A stretch of 64,000 nt of DNA from a virus, in the IMG/VR virus record IMGVR_UViG_3300042010_000040, positions 1 to 64,000 of that record; one strand, written 5' to 3'. Position 1 is the stretch's first letter. The number at the start of each line of letters is the position of its first letter. Of the stretch, positions 2,629 to 61,278 are shown piece after piece. The notes below the pieces were generated by a model. That model did not search any database. It saw nothing but the letters and a program-made list of their open reading frames with translations, and was not told the origin of the DNA. The position numbers and the translations under genes are program-made.

Positions 2629-2834
2629 TATAAACTTCCCCGTTTAGCTTTCATAAAATCAGAATAGTGGATTAGTGAACCATTGAAGAACATAGATTGA
2701 CCTTCAAATGTCCATTTCTTATTATTGTAGAAAAGGCACTCATACACATTTGCTCGATAAACAACCCACTCTTCAGTGGACAATTCATGGCCTGCACCTG
2801 TCATTTTATTTTTCATATTGCTCATCCTCTGCAT
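2628..2834 (-). CDS. Hypothetical protein
   Basis: Coupled ORF; start uncertain. Confidence 0.55.
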   Translation of the reverse strand: MQRMSNMKNKMTGAGHELSTEEWVVYRANVYECLFYNNKKWTFEGQSMFFNGSLIHYSDFMKAKRGSL

Positions 2835-3120
2835 CGTTCATGGCTTTAAGAGCAAAAATCAACTCCTCTTTTGTGGCCTTTATTCCCGGATTCCCTCCAC
2901 ACGCCTCCCAAGCTTCTTGGATCAGGTCATAGAGAGGATCAACCCATGCTACATCAAACCTAGGACACACATCAGACAACTTCCTGACATACGTATCATA
3001 GTCCATAAAATTCCCTACAACAAAGAATATTCCTTGACTGTTCATAACAATCATTTCTCCCTCTTTTAGCTTAATCTTCTGTCCCGTAGATGTGTCGATT
3101 ATTTTGAATTTCTTTTTCAT
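2806..3120 (-). CDS. Hypothetical protein
   Basis: 104-aa ORF with ATGA overlap with the upstream ORF. Confidence 0.6.
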   Translation of the reverse strand: MKKKFKIIDTSTGQKIKLKEGEMIVMNSQGIFFVVGNFMDYDTYVRKLSDVCPRFDVAWVDPLYDLIQEAWEACGGNPGIKATKEELIFALKAMNDAEDEQYEK

Positions 3121-3861: not shown

Positions 3862-4191
3862 ATGCTATGCAGCGAAAGCTATTCGAAGAATGGCGGCTGT
3901 GGGAGAAATGGGATGAGTGAAGTACATTGCACAGGTCACGTAGACTATGACCCAAAGAAGATTGTTAAGGTTCAGATTACAGAAAAGGTCACTTACTTGT
4001 CTGAAGTGGAAATGACCGAATCTGAGTACAAAGATTGGTGTGATCGTATTGACAACGCGAGAGGCTGGGAAAAGGAATCTGTGGGTGAAGAGTTGATGGA
4101 CCTGTGTCGGTTGAGTCGTATCATGGATGGAGACTATCATGATACACAGGTCGAAGACTTTATTTGTCCAGAATTTGAGGAGAATAAATAA
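3862..4191 (+). CDS. Hypothetical protein
   Basis: 109 aa, acidic, coupled to the next gene. Confidence 0.6.
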   Translation: MLCSESYSKNGGCGRNGMSEVHCTGHVDYDPKKIVKVQITEKVTYLSEVEMTESEYKDWCDRIDNARGWEKESVGEELMDLCRLSRIMDGDYHDTQVEDFICPEFEENK

Positions 4192-4490
4192 TGATTGATG
4201 AACATATGCAGCAACTAAGTGAGATGGAAAATAAATTGAATGGCTGGGAGGGTCAGGTGATGAGTGATATTATTGGTTATGAAGTGGTAATGTTTCAGGG
4301 TGAAGAAGATGGCGTTAGTATCTTCGGAAGCTCTGATGTAAAAGAGTGTAAGACTTTTGCAAAGAAAGGACGGAAGCAATTTAAGACTTTTGTTGAGAAT
4401 GGTTTTCCTGTAGAGTCGTTGCCTGAGTTTGCTATCATAGCGTATCATACGGACCAGATTACTAGTTTTGTAGAGGATGAACAGGAATGA
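4191..4490 (+). CDS. Hypothetical acidic protein
   Basis: GAGGAG SD, TAATG coupling. Confidence 0.65.
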   Translation: MIDEHMQQLSEMENKLNGWEGQVMSDIIGYEVVMFQGEEDGVSIFGSSDVKECKTFAKKGRKQFKTFVENGFPVESLPEFAIIAYHTDQITSFVEDEQE

Positions 4491-55102: not shown

Positions 55103-55507
55103 TTATTCATCTTCATCAGGTTCAACGAATACTAGTGACAGACGTGGTTTCATTTCGGCCTTGATCTGCTCAGGAGATTGCTCTTCCTCTTCAGTATCAC
55201 GCTTACCTTCTGCACGAGCTTTGAAGTTTGTAATCTCATCGCTGCTAGCTGCTTTTTCAACGCTGACAATGGAATTGATAATCCACTTTGCGCTTGCGAC
55301 AGACTCAGAGTTTACATTTTCATTCTTAAGACTCTTATCAATCAAAGCTAGAGCAATATCTTCGCGTTCACGAAGCTTGTCAGCCAGTTCACGCAGTTTA
55401 CTCTTTTTGATTCGAACCTTACTGTTTCCCGAAGTGTTTCTGTTTGAACGTGGCCCATCAAACCTAGTATCTGGGCTAGGATTCGGGTTTGTAATTTTCT
55501 TAGCCAT
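55103..55507 (-). CDS. Putative terminase small subunit
   Basis: TRFDGPRSNR..G basic N-terminus, helical core, acidic tail, near TerL. Confidence 0.55.
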   Translation of the reverse strand: MAKKITNPNPSPDTRFDGPRSNRNTSGNSKVRIKKSKLRELADKLREREDIALALIDKSLKNENVNSESVASAKWIINSIVSVEKAASSDEITNFKARAEGKRDTEEEEQSPEQIKAEMKPRLSLVFVEPDEDE

Positions 55508-55519
55508 AAATGTTACCTA

Positions 55520-58216
55520 TTAAGATACAGAAGGCATAACGCGGAAGTTTGTACTCGTTCCGGCGACACCTTCCGCCACATTGACCCAGCCCATCGATCC
55601 ACCTGCTGCAATTGTATTATTCCAAATCTTGTGACCTCTGGAATAATAAAAACCATCGGTTGGAATTGCTGTTGCATAGTGTGGGGTGACAGAGACAAGC
55701 ATCCACTCTGCTGTTGTACCTAGTTGTGGGATGATCCTTTCGAATATCAAAGCACCACCGCTAGGGCAGGTGAGTTCAGGGACACCAGATGCACGTAGAC
55801 TAATATTACCATTAGATCGTACAGTTACAGCACCGATTGCAAACAGTGTACGATGTTGTCCGGGGTTTGCCCAACCATGAAGATTTGAAATACGGATGGT
55901 CCTGTCAGCATTAGGGGACACATAGCAAGATGGATGGCCCTGCATATCAACGTTACCAGAAGCATCAGTAACAACAATTTTGTGTTGTCTGTTGTTCTTA
56001 AACAGTGTCATTCCGGTAGTTTGCTTACTGTTCTGTCCCACGTATTCCCAAGACTGAACTTGGTCAAGGCCTACACTACTAGCGGCAACCATGTTGTCAA
56101 CAGTACCGAGCATAAACCCACCGGGGCCAACCTGTGTGCGGCTGCTGACACCTTCCCTGAAGATACCCCCATCACCAACACCACCTTGAATGAAAGTAGT
56201 TGCTACAGTTTGGGATGCGCTAACTTGGTAAGTGCCAGACTTTCCAGTTGAACCTGTCAACTGTTGGACTATGGTGGTTCCAGCAGTAACCCCAGTACCC
56301 GTTAATGACATACCCGCAGCGAACCTGCCAAGCATTGACACATCGTTCTCAATCGTAAGGGTAGTTCCTGCAATGGAGCCATTACCTCGACCCGCACCAA
56401 CCGTACCATTGCCAGCATTAGCATGTCTGTTAGCTTGGAAGAATTGTTGGGCGCCAGTTTGAATGTCAAAACAGATACCTACAGATTCAAACCAAGTTTC
56501 CATTACGCTATTGTTACTGCAAGCACCAAGCTCCTTCCAACCCAATCGGGTTTTTTCACAAGCAAATTGCCCCATAGCCATTACACCAGTGGGGCAACGT
56601 GCAGCCTGACCAACACCGGCAATATCAGAAGTACTTTCACCATGACCACTTGCATTGTCTGCAACTTCCGAGGGGGTTGGGTCAAATGTCAACAGTACAC
56701 CGATATCTGATATATCATCTGGTGCTGTGCTCATACCGCCTGTGTAACCGTTCTCAAGTTCAATTTGACCGTGTTGGCCAGTGAACATGTAGCCAATACT
56801 GCCAATAGCTCCACGGGCACCTACTTGACAATCCTGAAACTTAACAAACTGGTTTGGGAGAAGTGAATGAGCATCGGTATATCCGGCTCTTGACCACACA
56901 CATCTGTTGAAGTTAATGATTCTGACATTGAAGAATGTCGTGTGCCACAACCCACCTTGAGTGTACCCAGCATCCCATTTTGCACGGGCATACAATCCCC
57001 ACTGTGTTGGGTTGACAGGTGCCACGTTAAAGTCTGCTGTTGATGCTCCGCTTATAGTGAGGTTAGACCACCCGCATTCTGCAACAACGCCAGAGTCAAT
57101 TTCCACCATCCCGTAAGTAAATCCGGGATCTGCTACAGGAAGAGCAACAAACCCACCATTCCTCACGCCGGGGCCGTCAACTGGAACTCTGGAGCGGATG
57201 GTTAGCTTAGTTACGGGGGAGAAGCCAGACCCAAGTCTAACCTTACCCCCACCCTTACTGGACGCATATAGAGATGCTTTTTCACAAGCCAGAGTGTCAT
57301 CTGTCACGCCGTCAGCCAGTCTACCAAACTCCTCCATCCAAATTTCACCGGAAGTAATTCTTTGGAACCTGCCTGTTGGAACACCCACAACAGCGAAAGT
57401 ATACCCACCATTATCCGGTTCTGTTGAAGCAGAGTCCCATATGAAATCACCACCGCCGCGTGGGCCAAGATAAGGTACTCTTGTGGACCACCCAGCATGA
57501 TAGGATGCGACTTTATAAGTAAGGCCAGTCTTTCTTGGTAGCGTCAATAGGTCTGCAACAGAATCAACAGACACCACAGCACTGCCAACATTCAGTGCTG
57601 CACCATCGGCAGCAAGGTCTGCAATGCTTACTTTTGTACTTAGAAGACCTTCTGTGTAAACAGCAGAAGCCTGTGCATCATTGGCGGAGTCTAAGGAGTC
57701 TTGAGCAGAAGCAGCGCTTTCAGCAGCTTTAGTAGTCGCTGTAACTGCACTTGATGCTGAAGACACAGCCGAAGTTTGACTTGCTGTGGCACTATTGGCA
57801 GAAGCTGTTGCAGAGTTAGCCGAATTCGTAGCACTTACCGCAGCTTGGCTTGCAGACGCAGCAGCAGCATTCTTACTAGCCAATGCACCAGCAGCATCAG
57901 CAGCCACTTGAGCTGCCAAGCCATCACTATGAGCTGTCTGATCAAGCATCAACAATTCATTAATTGTTGTCTGCGTTGTATCATCTGTAATCTCAATATT
58001 ACCAATGTTGGCATAAGATCTGTATTCTAAAGAAAATACACTAACATGATACCAACCGTTTGGGACATCAATTTCATACTCACCATCTTCATCTGTCTTA
58101 AAGTCTTTTGTTACAAACATAAGAACTTGTTCAGAGGTGTTATTAGCTGTAATCCGAACAGAAGAGTTTTTGTATGGTTCGCCTGTAGGGGTGAGGAGGG
58201 TGCCTGAAAGAATCAT
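55520..58216 (-). CDS. Tailspike/side-fibre depolymerase (Stf-like N-terminus, Ala/Ser linker, beta-helix)
   Basis: [13 protein letters not shown]...TDEDGEY, AAASAS repeats, [13 protein letters not shown]-terminal GWVNVAEG. Confidence 0.85.
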
Positions 58217-58920
58217 ATTGTCCCTACTGAGGTGGAGAGCTTGTTTTGTTTTTATAGAAAGATTTTCTTAAAGCCTATCAACAGGACAACCTGCAATACA
58301 TTTAGAAATGATAATAGGACTTAAGAAAATCAACTCTTTAGAGGAGAGGGCTAAAGAGTTGATGAAAGAATGTCTACAGGAGAGGATAGACTTCTTTAAG
58401 ATGCTGACGCGAGAGGAAGAGGAGGAGAACGTCAGCTTTGAAGGCACCATTAATAAAGAATTTATACTTGGATGGTGTCGGGTGAAACTAATTTGAGTGG
58501 TTGGTACTGAACTCCAACTTGCTGACGGCATATTCAGCAGCATACCCGCGTTGTGCTATTTCTAGTCTTACGCTGTGTATCAGTCTACACATTCACTCAA
58601 AACTGGAGCATACCTTGAAGGAATCTAACCTTCGACAACTTAAACGTATTCTAGACTACAGAATAAGGAGCCAACATGAGGCAGCATAAAACTTTAGTTT
58701 GAATCTTTAAATTCATTACCCCGTATTAAAACCATTTGAGCATCAATAAAGACACACATTGATAAGCTTGTTTAATTCCGAGGATTTCAGAACTCGTCAG
58801 TTCATTTCTTTAAGGGGCTCTAAGGCCTACGAAAAGACATTATTATGTCTCTCGGAATTGGAGTATAAATACTTCCTTTATTTTTCCCTAAAAATTTCCG
58901 CTGGTCTTCCTTGACCCAGT
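58217..58920 (-). ncRNA. Candidate large structured ncRNA or ncRNA cluster
   Basis: Follows a consensus promoter; multibranch domains, a tRNA-like element and three hairpins with UCUCCU loops. Confidence 0.55.
58604..58685 (-). other. Degenerate tRNA-like element
   Basis: T-arm GAAGG-TTAGATT-CCTTC, 3' CCA, 7-nt-loop stem TATTCT-GTAGTCT-AGAATA; no canonical D-arm. Confidence 0.45.
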
Positions 58921-58926
58921 AAAACA

Positions 58927-58955
58927 AGTATGAACTATAAAAGTTCTTTTGTCAA
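58927..58955 (-). promoter_or_regulatory. Sigma70-type promoter
   Basis: TTGACA-17-CATACT. Confidence 0.75.
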
Positions 58956-58979
58956 GTAATTGACTAATTTATTTGCAAT

Positions 58980-59126
58980 TTATTCAAAAATAGGCATCAC
59001 TTTACGGAATTGTGTGTTTCCTTCGGTGATACTTTCGAATGCATACTCAAATTTAAAGTCTGGATTGTCTTCTTCCCACAAATCTTCTTCAAGTTCTTCG
59101 TCTTCAAGATAATCTTCAATTTTCAT
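58980..59126 (-). CDS. Small very acidic protein (48 aa)
   Basis: MKIEDYLEDEELEEDLWEEDNPDF..., AGGA SD, overlaps the end of the HNH gene. Confidence 0.6.
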   Translation of the reverse strand: MKIEDYLEDEELEEDLWEEDNPDFKFEYAFESITEGNTQFRKVMPIFE

Positions 59127-59901
59127 TTTTAATCCTATTCTTTCTCTTTTTGATTGCTATCTTTTCCCAGTCATCTGGGTGTTTAGCGTTCTTTTCTAAA
59201 TTACATGTTGGACACAGCAGTTGAATATTCTCAGGCCAATTACTCCCACCTAATGCAAGCGGCATAATATGATCTGCGTGGTAACTTGTGAATATTAAGT
59301 TAGCAAGACATCCTGTACACAGGCCATTTTGTTTAACAAATAAGTTATGTATATCGTCTGCTGTAAACTCGCCTTCAGCGTTCTTTATTCTTGCACGTCT
59401 TCGGTGTGAATTAGCTTTGAGTGTGGCTTTATTTTCTAAAGTGTAGTTCTTAGCTCTTTCTTTGTAGCATTCAACGCAACCACCAGAGTCAGCATATTTC
59501 TTACTAAAATGTCCTTTTAATTCACAAGCAACATTATCGTAGTAATACTTTTCTTCTACATATATGGCTTGTGCTCTGGTTTTAGGTAAGAAAGATAATT
59601 CCATTTCAAGAAGTTTTGTTGATTCGGGGCTATCTGGATCAGCAACAGACTTTAGGAAGTCCATTGTGTCTTTAGCATATTGAATTGCTTCTTTTGCTGT
59701 TTGTTTGCGTTTGTATTTCTCTTCAGCCCTATCGGAACTCTGTTCTCTAAATAAATCGTTTTGTTCGTGAATGCATTCAACACATTTAGTGGATTCAACC
59801 ATTCTGTCTGCTATATGTCCATTCTTACATTCTTCACCAATAAAGTAATATACCTCACCAGCTTTTCTTGCGTCACTTCTACTTATAAATTCCACTACCA
59901 C
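59116..59901 (-). CDS. HNH endonuclease with Zn-binding repeats
   Basis: CTGC...HADHIMPLALGGSNWPENIQLLCPTCN; two CxxGH...CVEC-type repeats. Confidence 0.88.
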   Translation of the reverse strand: MVVEFISRSDARKAGEVYYFIGEECKNGHIADRMVESTKCVECIHEQNDLFREQSSDRAEEKYKRKQTAKEAIQYAKDTMDFLKSVADPDSPESTKLLEMELSFLPKTRAQAIYVEEKYYYDNVACELKGHFSKKYADSGGCVECYKERAKNYTLENKATLKANSHRRRARIKNAEGEFTADDIHNLFVKQNGLCTGCLANLIFTSYHADHIMPLALGGSNWPENIQLLCPTCNLEKNAKHPDDWEKIAIKKRKNRIKNEN

Positions 59902-60030: not shown

Positions 60031-61278
60031 TCAAACAGATAACTTCTCCTCAATAGCAACACCATCTTCTTTCCAATTCAGACTGATAGGCACTAAATAA
60101 TCCACACCAAACCTTTTACGAAAGCAATCACCCATAGTTTTTGATAGTAAGTCAGCATTCTTAGTCTGCACCAAAAATGAGTCATGCACTGGCAAGCATG
60201 AGATATTCTTTTCAATCATCACCTCTAGAATATCATTAGCCAAATGACTATCAGCATTTTGTAAGATACGCCCCATGCTATCTGGGCAACAGAAGAAATC
60301 ACCAAACTGTGGGTATTTATCATAGATAAGCAACATCACAGCCTTTGCACCGCCAAGGGAATACTTCTTTTTGTCTTCATCCTTAAGCAGATTAATCTCT
60401 TTACGAATAGCACCCTCTGCATCGTCGTCGTTATAGCAGTTAAACATGATGTTAACAGCGAGCTTCACGATACGACGATCTACTGTGTTTGTTTCATCTT
60501 CAAGAATACCTGAGTAAACGTCTAGTGGAAGGTACTCGACATCAATATCCTTGAGAGCAGCAGCTACACGAAAATGTAGATTGCAGAAGTCAATCTCACA
60601 AACTTCCTGACCTTCAATCTTAATATCAAGTCGTGCATCCGTATCTCGATTCTTAATTGCCAGCACATCAGCTTTATAAAATCGACCACCGTAAGCAAAC
60701 GACTCATTGAAGATACGACAGTAGAAGTTTGTGAGAGTCTTACCACTACCATCTTCAATACGAAATGATTCATTCATATGGTTGAGCTTACGAACAACCT
60801 CTTCCATTTTCTTGATATCTTGTGTGTTACGATAAGGGATTGAATTCTTGTCTTCATCTCGCAATTCAATAACCTTCACGGTGTCTTCATATGCTTTCAT
60901 AGTTTCCTCAATCAATTCTTCCATGTGCCAGACTTCAATGAACTTCTGGGTTGGAGTGATGTAGCTAACTTCCCTCTTCTCTTTAATCTTATGTGGCTTA
61001 CCCTTAACATTAACCACATAACCTTCATGTACTAAGTATTCAATACAACGAATAACCTTACGAGAGGTAATATCTTTCTTACTACTTGTCTTTGTTCCTC
61101 CTGTGTCTCTACTATACACAAGCTTACATTGTTTCTTAAGACAAGCAATCAGATTAGTGACAACCACACCTAACGTAGTAATGTCCTTATATCCATACAC
61201 CCTAATAGCATTACTTACCTCTCTACTAACTTTAATATCATAGGTTAGTAGCTTAGTATTCAAGATTACATCTCCCAT
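60031..61278 (-). CDS. Compact family A/T7-RNAP-like nucleotide polymerase-fold protein
   Basis: GGRFY, motif A EIDFCNLHFR, motif B RRIVKLAVN, motif C PVHDSF. Confidence 0.65.
   Translation of the reverse strand: MGDVILNTKLLTYDIKVSREVSNAIRVYGYKDITTLGVVVTNLIACLKKQCKLVYSRDTGGTKTSSKKDITSRKVIRCIEYLVHEGYVVNVKGKPHKIKEKREVSYITPTQKFIEVWHMEELIEETMKAYEDTVKVIELRDEDKNSIPYRNTQDIKKMEEVVRKLNHMNESFRIEDGSGKTLTNFYCRIFNESFAYGGRFYKADVLAIKNRDTDARLDIKIEGQEVCEIDFCNLHFRVAAALKDIDVEYLPLDVYSGILEDETNTVDRRIVKLAVNIMFNCYNDDDAEGAIRKEINLLKDEDKKKYSLGGAKAVMLLIYDKYPQFGDFFCCPDSMGRILQNADSHLANDILEVMIEKNISCLPVHDSFLVQTKNADLLSKTMGDCFRKRFGVDYLVPISLNWKEDGVAIEEKLSV

Follow-up and report, generated by a model that had tools for sequence, protein, structure and literature searches.

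The 64 kb of DNA analysed here, referred to as the window, open a complete IMG/VR virus record of 92,347 bp (IMGVR_UViG_3300042010_000040; whole genome, G000) from a phage found in metagenomes from rhizosphere, plants and soil. Upstream of its tailspike gene lies a gene-poor gap (58217-58979) with no convincing gene inside. The 3' end of this gap, just before the tailspike gene, holds a conserved stretch of 229 nucleotides (nt) on the minus strand (58262-58490). It is a real, new and well-supported structured RNA family of about 230 nt, not the ~700 nt proposed in an earlier note on this DNA, and sits within a variable non-coding unit. Three of its hairpin loops resemble the ribosomal sequence that docks onto mRNA, and as a candidate small RNA (sRNA) it probably controls translation. 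Coordinates without a prefix are those of the window, and L-numbered loci are related phage loci or contigs from metagenomes.

The overall fold of the conserved RNA consists of five hairpins, P0-P4. From 5' to 3' it is composed as follows; RBS denotes ribosome-binding site, and z compares the folding energy with that of shuffled sequences.

58481-58488, minus strand: 5' motif GUUUCACC, in which GUUUCAC is invariant in the first 15 homologues
58445-58477, minus strand: P0, a hairpin whose loop contains conserved AAG and AAAUUCU
58403-58436, minus strand: P1, an 8-bp hairpin capped by a pyrimidine loop of 18 nt, UCUCCUCCUCUUCCUCUC (58411-58428)
58365-58397, minus strand: P2 hairpin, 12 bp with a bulge, with an 8-nt loop, CCUCUCCU (58378-58385), whose word is conserved
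58329-58363, minus strand: P3 hairpin, 13 bp, with loop CCCUCUCCU (58342-58350), followed by UUUUCUU (58322-58328)
58264-58328, minus strand: P4, a long irregular stem of ~21 bp with an apical hairpin (UUUUCUUAAG.../...CUUUAAGAAAA), z = -5.3
58214-58263, minus strand: A-rich spacer and the RBS and start of the tailspike gene (CAGUAGGGACAAUAUG)

The family comprises 19 distinct homologues, found in rhizosphere and soil phage contigs of a clade without cultured members. A query with the N-terminus of the tailspike led to seven loci on six related phage contigs. The ~400 nt upstream of the common start codon, aligned across these tailspike-type loci, contain a conserved element whose stems visibly compensate, and each of the seven sequences folded singly gives the same five hairpins. 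A degenerate pattern of invariant single-stranded words was scanned over IMG/VR and the JGI metagenomes, and its candidates were filtered by a covariance model (window and L012), yielding 15 distinct full-length homologues. A second pattern, restricted to the loops, added four more divergent ones, three of which carry the 5' motif variants CUUCACC, AUUUCACC and CUGCACC. All six complete genomes tested (87-93 kb) have one copy each. About 50 metagenome and seven viral pattern matches were rejected as chance hits or as members of one unrelated repeated contig family, and none of 39 pattern matches in GTDB genomes was confirmed by the covariance model. A covariance model designated R2 returned only 12-13-bit noise from Ep020, 16Q (Otagovirus), PS24 (Nankokuvirus) and FelixO1; the Ep020 candidate was discarded, as it does not fold (z = -0.6).

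Covariation across the 19 sequences is extensive. Standard pairs occupy 95% of 1075 pair cells, 49 of 60 pairs have changed on both sides, and none of 500 column shuffles matched the alignment on any measure. When the 3' partners were slid by 1-3 columns as a control, pairing fell to 36-43% and the number of double-change pairs to 12-20. Both-side changes are spread over every hairpin: 5 of 6 pairs in P0 (helix 1; 84% of cells paired), 6 of 8 in P1 (helix 2; 94.5%), 10 of 12 in P2 (helices 3 and 4; 95-97%), 13 of 13 in P3 (helix 5; 98%) and 15 of 21 in P4 (helices 6 and 7; 93-97%). The P1 stem GCUGACG/CGUCAGC, for example, becomes GCUAACG/CGUUAGC in L012. Because this alignment had been fitted to the model, an alignment-free check was made. 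The minimum free energy (MFE) folds of all 15 first homologues display exactly three hairpin loops with the CU word, at z-scores from -4.7 to -9.9 for the single folds against mononucleotide shuffles. Within the window, folding is much more stable than in shuffled sequence both for the CU-loop hairpin trio (58331-58445, z = -7.4) and for the long stem (58262-58330, z = -5.3), so that the three UCUCCU hairpins and the stem described in the earlier note stand, and covariation in related phages, which that note had named as a check, is present at full strength for 58262-58490 alone.

The strand is also resolved by the stems. Read on the minus strand, the stem cells of the 15 homologues contain 54 G-U/U-G and five A-C/C-A combinations, an excess that identifies the tailspike strand as the folded one, as the note's remark on the G-U pairs had anticipated. 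This wobble asymmetry likewise favours an RNA over a signal in duplex DNA. In the loci examined, the flanking tRNAs and the first downstream open reading frame (ORF) are co-oriented with the RNA.

A coding role is excluded. A plus-strand ORF of 62 amino acids (aa) at 58308-58496 was rejected as a gene on the evidence of L007, the closest relative: its start is lost there to a 10-bp deletion, and two in-frame TAG codons and further indels follow, in DNA that is elsewhere ~90% identical. The ORF is the purine-rich complement of the CU-rich loops. No conserved ORF covers the element among the homologues, and six-frame tblastn of 58491-58979 returned only the DNA-level match to L011, in all frames.

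The loops of P1, P2 and P3 share one word, CUCUCC(U), replaced by CCUCC in about half of the P1 loops, and it is the sole unchanging feature while the stems turn over. The P1 loop is CU-rich in all 19 homologues. The word is the complement of AGGAGAG. The RBSs of the phage itself are mostly AAGGAG(A/G), with AGGAGA(G) the commonest form of the Shine-Dalgarno (SD) sequence, which implies that the host uses a canonical SD and that the loops resemble the anti-SD tail of 16S rRNA. The linkers P1-P2 and P2-P3 are 5 and 1 nt long. A U-rich tract follows P3 in all members, and in the window it doubles as the 5' arm of P4; P3 with UUUUCUU is terminator-like, and a terminator scan passed over it because its 9-nt loop exceeds the 8-nt limit of the scan. 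P4 is a candidate RNase III site or 5' stabiliser for the downstream mRNA. Among the seven loci from the six tailspike-type relatives, the tailspike RBS and start do not vary; the spacer does. A long-range pairing of GUUUC with the tailspike SD (GGGAC), seen in some MFE folds, was set aside: neither side varies, and other relatives have a different gene downstream, so it is unlikely to be general.

Upstream of the conserved RNA, the gap contains the following features, listed in the direction of transcription.

58927-58955, minus strand: sigma70-like promoter TTGACA-17-CATACT, 10/12 match, the putative start of the non-coding unit
58828-58926, minus strand: genome-specific leader, z = -1.15, with no homologue by DNA or six-frame translation among the fetched loci
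58706-58827, minus strand: module U, a second conserved module (~120 nt), 95% identical to L011 and recognisable in L027, L081 and L098
58604-58685, minus strand: tRNA-like element ending in CCA-GUUUU, z = -0.58 (58601-58699), without homologues
58493-58600, minus strand: cloverleaf-like domain of a closing stem and four hairpins (MFE), z = -2.2

The promoter noted earlier is present at 58955-58927 on the minus strand. Its 10/12 match alone is not above chance for the region, and the relatives supply the comparative evidence: on the same strand upstream of the RNA, matches of at least 11/12 to sigma70 promoters occur in 7 of 14 loci (expected 0.24) and perfect 12/12 matches in 4 of 14 (expected 0.025). 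The opposite strand of the 14 loci has no promoter at those scores. These sigma70-like promoters lie 200-750 nt upstream of the RNA, and similar -10 boxes are seen in L027 (TTGACA-18-CATACT) and L011 (TTGACA-16-GATACT). The interval from promoter to RNA lacks any ORF of at least 30 aa in the window, L011 and L012, and contains one short ORF (31-55 aa) in L022, L027, L031 and L098.

Nine of 16 loci have a tRNA or tRNA-like sequence whose CCA abuts GUUUCACC. Genuine tRNAs occupy this position in five loci (tRNA-Thr in L012, L027 and L036, tRNA-Leu in L014, and in L034 a tRNA truncated by the contig end), and CCA-ending tRNA-like remnants do so in four further ones. Remnants with a T-arm, which ARAGORN calls only at a 70% threshold, were observed in L010 (2560-2704, plus strand, with CCA) and L013 (2650-2735, plus strand); their place directly before the RNA suggests that the flanking tRNA gene has decayed repeatedly. 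Three relatives carry complete type-I hammerhead cores (CUGAUGA, stem II, GAAA, stem III, GUC) between the promoter and the tRNA or element, 92-289 nt upstream of the RNA: L014:2413-2461 (plus strand), L016:2629-2671 (plus strand) and L081:6842-6888 (minus strand), the last with different, compensating stems. Rfam gives a sub-threshold HH9 match in L014 (23.4 bits; gathering threshold 52) and returned nothing for L081. A structural scan of the unit in the window, including the CUGACGA of module U, detected no hammerhead; complete cores are confined to L014, L016 and L081. Taken together, the tRNA, promoter and hammerhead context indicates that the conserved RNA is the 3' member of a non-coding, presumably multiply processed transcription unit heading packaging and structural genes. 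The earlier note had offered a processed polycistronic sRNA cluster as one of two readings, and the unit of the relatives fits it, with a sigma70 promoter, tRNA genes, hammerhead cores, module U in some and the three-loop RNA in all.

Module U is the only other part of the gap that is conserved. It combines a hairpin, GAACU-GACG-AGUUC, with a covarying long-range UCCUCG/CGGGGU helix that encloses a variable hairpin, and ends 3' in ACGGRGYAAUGA; its covarying hairpin contains CUGACGAG. RNAalifold finds 11 pairs, six of them changed on both sides, in five sequences of about three lineages, which amounts to modest comparative support. The single-sequence z-score of 58700-58827 is -0.98, and no Rfam family matches the module at E <= 10. 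It could be an unrecognised processing element or ribozyme. The multibranch domain that the earlier note closed by aattccgag/ctcggaatt (58773-58859) does fold well in this genome (z = -3.6); its 5' arm, though, is missing from L011, which is 95% identical over 58700-58827, so that this closing stem is not conserved, and sequence comparison favours pairing of UCCUCG with the downstream CGGGGU instead.

The remainder, ~300 nt, is unique to this genome, and the relatives hold quite different content there; neither 58828-58926 nor 58491-58705 has homologues among the fetched loci. The folding of the earlier note's two 5' hairpins (58828-58926, z = -1.15) is at chance level, as is that of its tRNA-like element (58601-58699, z = -0.58), which yields no tRNA call by ARAGORN or Rfam. 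The claimed second multibranch domain at 58493-58600 is predicted as a cloverleaf-like fold and is unique to this genome. It occupies the position of tRNA-Thr or tRNA-Leu in L012, L014, L027 and L036, to whose tRNAs it has no significant similarity. Both 58493-58600 and 58604-58685 are sited where relatives carry tRNAs, so that tRNA decay is a fair guess. They are possibly tRNA relics; detectors and sequence comparison lend this no support, with no ARAGORN call at default or relaxed settings and no RF00005 match at E <= 10 for either. ARAGORN found no tRNA in the window, and with introns allowed and low thresholds it made only implausible calls with introns of 90-225 nt.

Folded as one piece, the 704-nt stretch 58217-58920 is only marginally more stable than shuffles, and similarly so on both strands (minus, z = -1.95; plus, z = -1.75; 20 shuffles each). 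At gathering thresholds, Rfam 15 recognises no family in the 64-kb window, and at E <= 10 a search of 58150-59000 returned only a sub-threshold match to ar14, and no GOLLD, ROOL or tRNA (RF00005). What survives of the earlier claim of an unclassified large non-coding RNA is therefore a real, unclassified, promoter-associated RNA on the minus strand; the single ~700-nt fold does not, since only the 229 nt and the ~120-nt module are conserved, and the test against shuffles that the note had suggested is strong for 58331-58445 and 58262-58330 and marginal for the whole.

The genes around the gap all lie on the minus strand.

60031-61278, minus strand: small polymerase-like gene
59116-59901, minus strand: HNH endonuclease gene
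58980-59126, minus strand: 48-aa ORF, the upstream flank of the gap
55520-58216, minus strand: tailspike/tail-fibre gene, whose N-terminus matches PHROG tail-fibre families
55103-55507, minus strand: 134-aa ORF

The 48-aa ORF product is very acidic and has no family match; the ORF overlaps the end of the HNH gene. The gap thus adjoins the tailspike gene, as had been described, but is separated from the HNH gene by this ORF. By a crude ORF/SD filter, which drops the 48-aa ORF too, the largest gap of the 92,347-bp genome is this one (899 nt, 58217-59115; runner-up 656 nt), in agreement with the earlier note. Farther along the minus strand, past the 134-aa ORF, follow an endonuclease, the large terminase (TerL) and the portal gene.

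The RNA is not always followed by the same gene. Next in line is the tailspike in six relatives and the window, a homologue of ORF 55103-55507 (~135 aa) in L022, L027, L031, L036, L041, L098, L151, L153 and L156, a ~108-aa ORF in L081 and L148, and a 336-aa ORF in L034, and the spacer from RNA to gene ranges from 14 to 184 nt. This variability argues against control of one particular RBS. In nine relatives the ORF 55103-55507 homologue is the usual direct neighbour of the RNA, which suggests that this lineage gained its tailspike by insertion between the two. The product of this ORF has a basic N-terminus (PSPDTRFDGPRSNRN..KSKLR) and an acidic tail, matches no PHROG, NCBIfam or cultured-phage entry, and may be a small terminase or an RNA- or DNA-binding protein. 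Between P4 and the tailspike start, L011 carries a structured insertion of ~130 nt (2817-3000, plus strand), and between the RNA and the next gene L153 shows an apparent tRNA 3' half with a T-arm and ACCA end, recognised by eye only (4105-4347, minus strand); these inserts mark the junction 3' of P4 as a further insertion hotspot. No conserved late-promoter motif was seen in the spacer from P4 to the start codon.

Sequence relationships make a Pseudomonas-like host a reasonable lead. TerL is ~50% identical to those of Pseudomonas myoviruses (Otagovirus, Nankokuvirus), and FelixO1-like matches are more distant. Beyond the window, G000 encodes a poly(3-hydroxyalkanoate) (PHA) depolymerase (72994-73830, plus strand; L145:95-931) that scores 320 bits against the NCBIfam equivalog TIGR02240 (cut-off 250.6), a host-range lead to bacteria that store medium-chain PHA, e.g. 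Pseudomonas. A GTDB search with the tailspike C-terminus found no relative and so gave no host lead. Neither blastn nor tblastn against 50,697 cultured-phage records detected a match to the gap, to the N-terminus of the tailspike or to the 134-aa ORF. No RNA run was among the sequencing runs listed for this sequence, and DNA contigs from the runs were identical to the window, with no new variants.

The closest known family is Rfam ar14 (RF02344), which scores 30.2 bits in the window and 38.8 in L013 against a gathering threshold of 58.8, so that the RNA is unclassified by the Rfam check proposed in the earlier note. The other eight relatives searched gave no ar14 match at E <= 1. The model aligns full length to P1-P3 and the U-tail, with P3 and the U-tail on its terminator hairpin. 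ar14 belongs to the cuckoo RNAs, in which two to four hairpins stand side by side, with helices of 6 bp or more, linkers of at most 10 nt, variable stems and loops of at least 9 nt (PMC4615179). Their loops share an identical, ultraconserved word, CCUCCUCCC; the members are ar14/NfeR1 and CcsR1-4/RSs0680 of Rhodobacter, and in NfeR1 three redundant loops silence mRNAs by pairing with RBSs (PMC4615179, PMC10746234).

The phage RNA has this architecture, with P1, P2 and P3 of 8, 12 and 13 bp, linkers of 5 and 1 nt, and covarying stems, although the 8-nt loop of P2 falls one below the 9-nt minimum. Like ar14, it repeats a pyrimidine-rich anti-SD loop word and ends its last such hairpin in a U-tract. 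The word, however, is CCUCUCCU, CUCUCC or CCUCC and never the full 9-mer CCUCCUCCC. The conserved 5' GUUUCACC, P0 and the long P4 have no counterpart in ar14. The phage RNA is tRNA-linked and heads structural genes, whereas ar14 lies on alpha-proteobacterial chromosomes, and the nearest cultured relatives of the phage infect Pseudomonas. Thus, the phage RNA resembles a cuckoo RNA on paper but is not filed here as a member, and the likeness may be convergent.

Other systems share single aspects. RNAIII of Staphylococcus aureus, RsaE/RoxS and 6C RNA are host-encoded sRNAs with C-rich loops, whose words are UCCC or CCCC. In such RNAs, several loops with one C-rich word pair with SDs (PMC4615179). 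The phage RNA is like all of these in its C-rich, putatively SD-pairing loops but has a different word and no sequence or structural homology to them. In genomic context it most resembles the band C and D RNAs of T4 and sRNA1 and sRNA2 of PAK_P3, which are tRNA-linked, stable small RNAs of virulent phages whose function has gone unassigned for decades. They are abundant and non-coding and lie beside or between the tRNA genes of lytic myoviruses; those of PAK_P3 are ~100 nt long (PMC4933390). TerL of PAK_P1-like phages is ~50% identical to that of this phage; the PAK_P3 sRNAs are shorter than the ~230-nt phage RNA and lack a described anti-SD loop motif, of which the phage RNA has three copies. 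GOLLD and ROOL RNAs are phage-borne and often tRNA-adjacent as well, but are multi-junction folds of 400-800 nt, in contrast to the simple tandem hairpins seen here, which have no Rfam match.

The interpretation we favour, tentatively and as a model, is that of a tRNA-linked, processed phage sRNA that would pair with RBSs through its three anti-SD loops. The conserved RNA, ~165-230 nt long, would form the 3' part of a non-coding unit transcribed from the host-type sigma70 promoter at 58955-58927. Processing at the tRNA, or the structure resembling one, that immediately precedes GUUUCACC would generate its 5' end. RNase E prefers RN↓WUU, and the CCA-G↓UUU junction would fit this preference. The 3' end may be set by the terminator-like P3 with its U-tract or by a cut in P4. 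The apical loops of P1, P2 and P3 would then present the anti-SD-like word (CCUCC or CCUCUCCU) to purine-rich, AGGAGAG-type RBSs on mRNAs of the host or of non-structural phage genes and keep translation from starting, by analogy with ar14/NfeR1, the CcsR cuckoo RNAs and RNAIII. An exploratory comparison within this genome is consistent with such targets, as predicted pairing with the loops is stronger for the translation starts of non-structural genes than for those of structural genes (mean -11.4 vs -9.5 kcal/mol; Mann-Whitney p = 0.007), while pairing with the 16S anti-SD is equal between the two groups (p = 0.5). RBS regions of non-structural genes in G000 are more purine-rich (GGAGAA/GGAGAG) than those of the structural module (AAGGA/GGAGG).

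Several points weigh against this interpretation. The pairing difference comes from crude gene calls in one genome and may reflect GA-richness upstream of early genes. Since the host leads point only to Pseudomonas, host targets are not predictable. The loop word differs from that of ar14, and the ar14 score is well under its gathering threshold. P0, P4 and the 5' motif are conserved as much as the loops and are left unexplained by pairing. The strong covariation of P4, 3' of the putative terminator, means that read-through transcripts must matter, which fits a leader role too. Finally, the conserved loop word could equally be a protein-binding site.

The main rival is a cis-acting leader of the packaging/structural operon, which would serve as a processing or stability element, a put-like antitermination RNA or a terminator/insulator that separates an early-type promoter from the late genes, and would have no targets in trans. 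This is doubtful, yet it deserves serious weight, and it explains the conservation of P4 beyond the U-tract better than RBS pairing does: P4 would protect the 5' end as a stem or be cut by RNase III. The element always lies just upstream of the tailspike or of an ORF 55103-55507 homologue preceding the terminase genes, it is present in single copy, P4 covaries, in most loci the next start codon lies 14-50 nt beyond its end, and a strong sigma70 promoter directly before late genes would need an insulator. However, the varied downstream genes (tailspike, ~135-aa, ~108-aa and 336-aa) and spacers (14-184 nt) do not tie the RNA to one RBS, the SDs of the genes that follow are weak and do not complement the loops, and three identical loop words on stems that vary freely speak for a recognition motif rather than a mere processing stem.

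Less probable still is a protein decoy or sponge, in which the pyrimidine loops would bind a host or phage RNA-binding protein, such as ribosomal protein S1, a KH-domain protein or the basic ~135-aa downstream protein, and so titrate or recruit it. CsrB/RsmZ-type sponges are built in the way seen here, with one 6-8-nt word shown three times on stems that are unrelated, and in nine relatives the gene directly downstream codes for a conserved, basic protein of ~135 aa that lacks annotation. Against this, we know of no bacterial protein that recognises CCUCUCC loops, and the loop word complements the commonest SD of the phage, AGGAGA(G), which a protein site would not need to do.

A single ornate RNA of ~700 nt of the GOLLD/ROOL kind, spanning the whole gap, is very improbable. 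The placement of a promoter and the conserved RNA at opposite ends of the gap, the lack of any ORF of at least 30 aa in between, and a tRNA adjacency that is typical of GOLLD and ROOL too would suit it; the lack of an Rfam match, the ~300 nt without homologue where relatives differ, and a whole-stretch z-score of about -2 do not. A plus-strand transcript, with loops AGGAGAGG serving as a CsrA/RsmA sponge or ribosome decoy, is hardly credible: its loops hold GGA motifs and the 704-nt plus strand folds about as well as the minus strand, but a test for a CsrB/RsmZ-type GGA-loop sponge fails on the 54 to 5 wobble ratio and on promoters confined to the minus strand, with which flanking tRNAs and genes are co-oriented. 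Equally implausible are a DNA-level signal (pac site, origin or repeated protein boxes by the small-terminase-like gene), suggested by three repeats of one word near packaging genes but contradicted by covarying stems, conservation of the loops alone and a wobble asymmetry that points to one single strand, and a decayed gene, suggested by a 91-aa minus-strand ORF (58268-58543) overlapping the element but contradicted by the lack of any conserved ORF or protein homology found.

To our knowledge, the sRNAs of virulent phages are almost unexplored. The comparative support for this RNA is unusually strong, its recognition motif is clear, and the proposed mechanism, RBS occlusion, can be tested. 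It also comes with a defined genomic grammar in which a sigma70 promoter, ribozyme or tRNA processing signals, the RNA and a terminator-like hairpin precede the late genes, and its covariance model could become an Rfam family for the annotation of metagenomic phages. If the proposed pairing mechanism is true, it would represent a new phage route to take over or time translation and a case of convergent evolution with rhizobial NfeR1-type RNAs. A bolder version, possible though somewhat unlikely, casts the RNA as a "ribosome-tail mimic": an abundant tRNA-linked sRNA of a lytic soil phage clade, independent of the cuckoo RNAs, whose anti-SD loops would titrate host or early-phage SDs and reprogram translation. 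If true, virulent phages would gain their first anti-SD sRNA, and the long-unexplained phage RNAs associated with tRNA clusters would gain a function.

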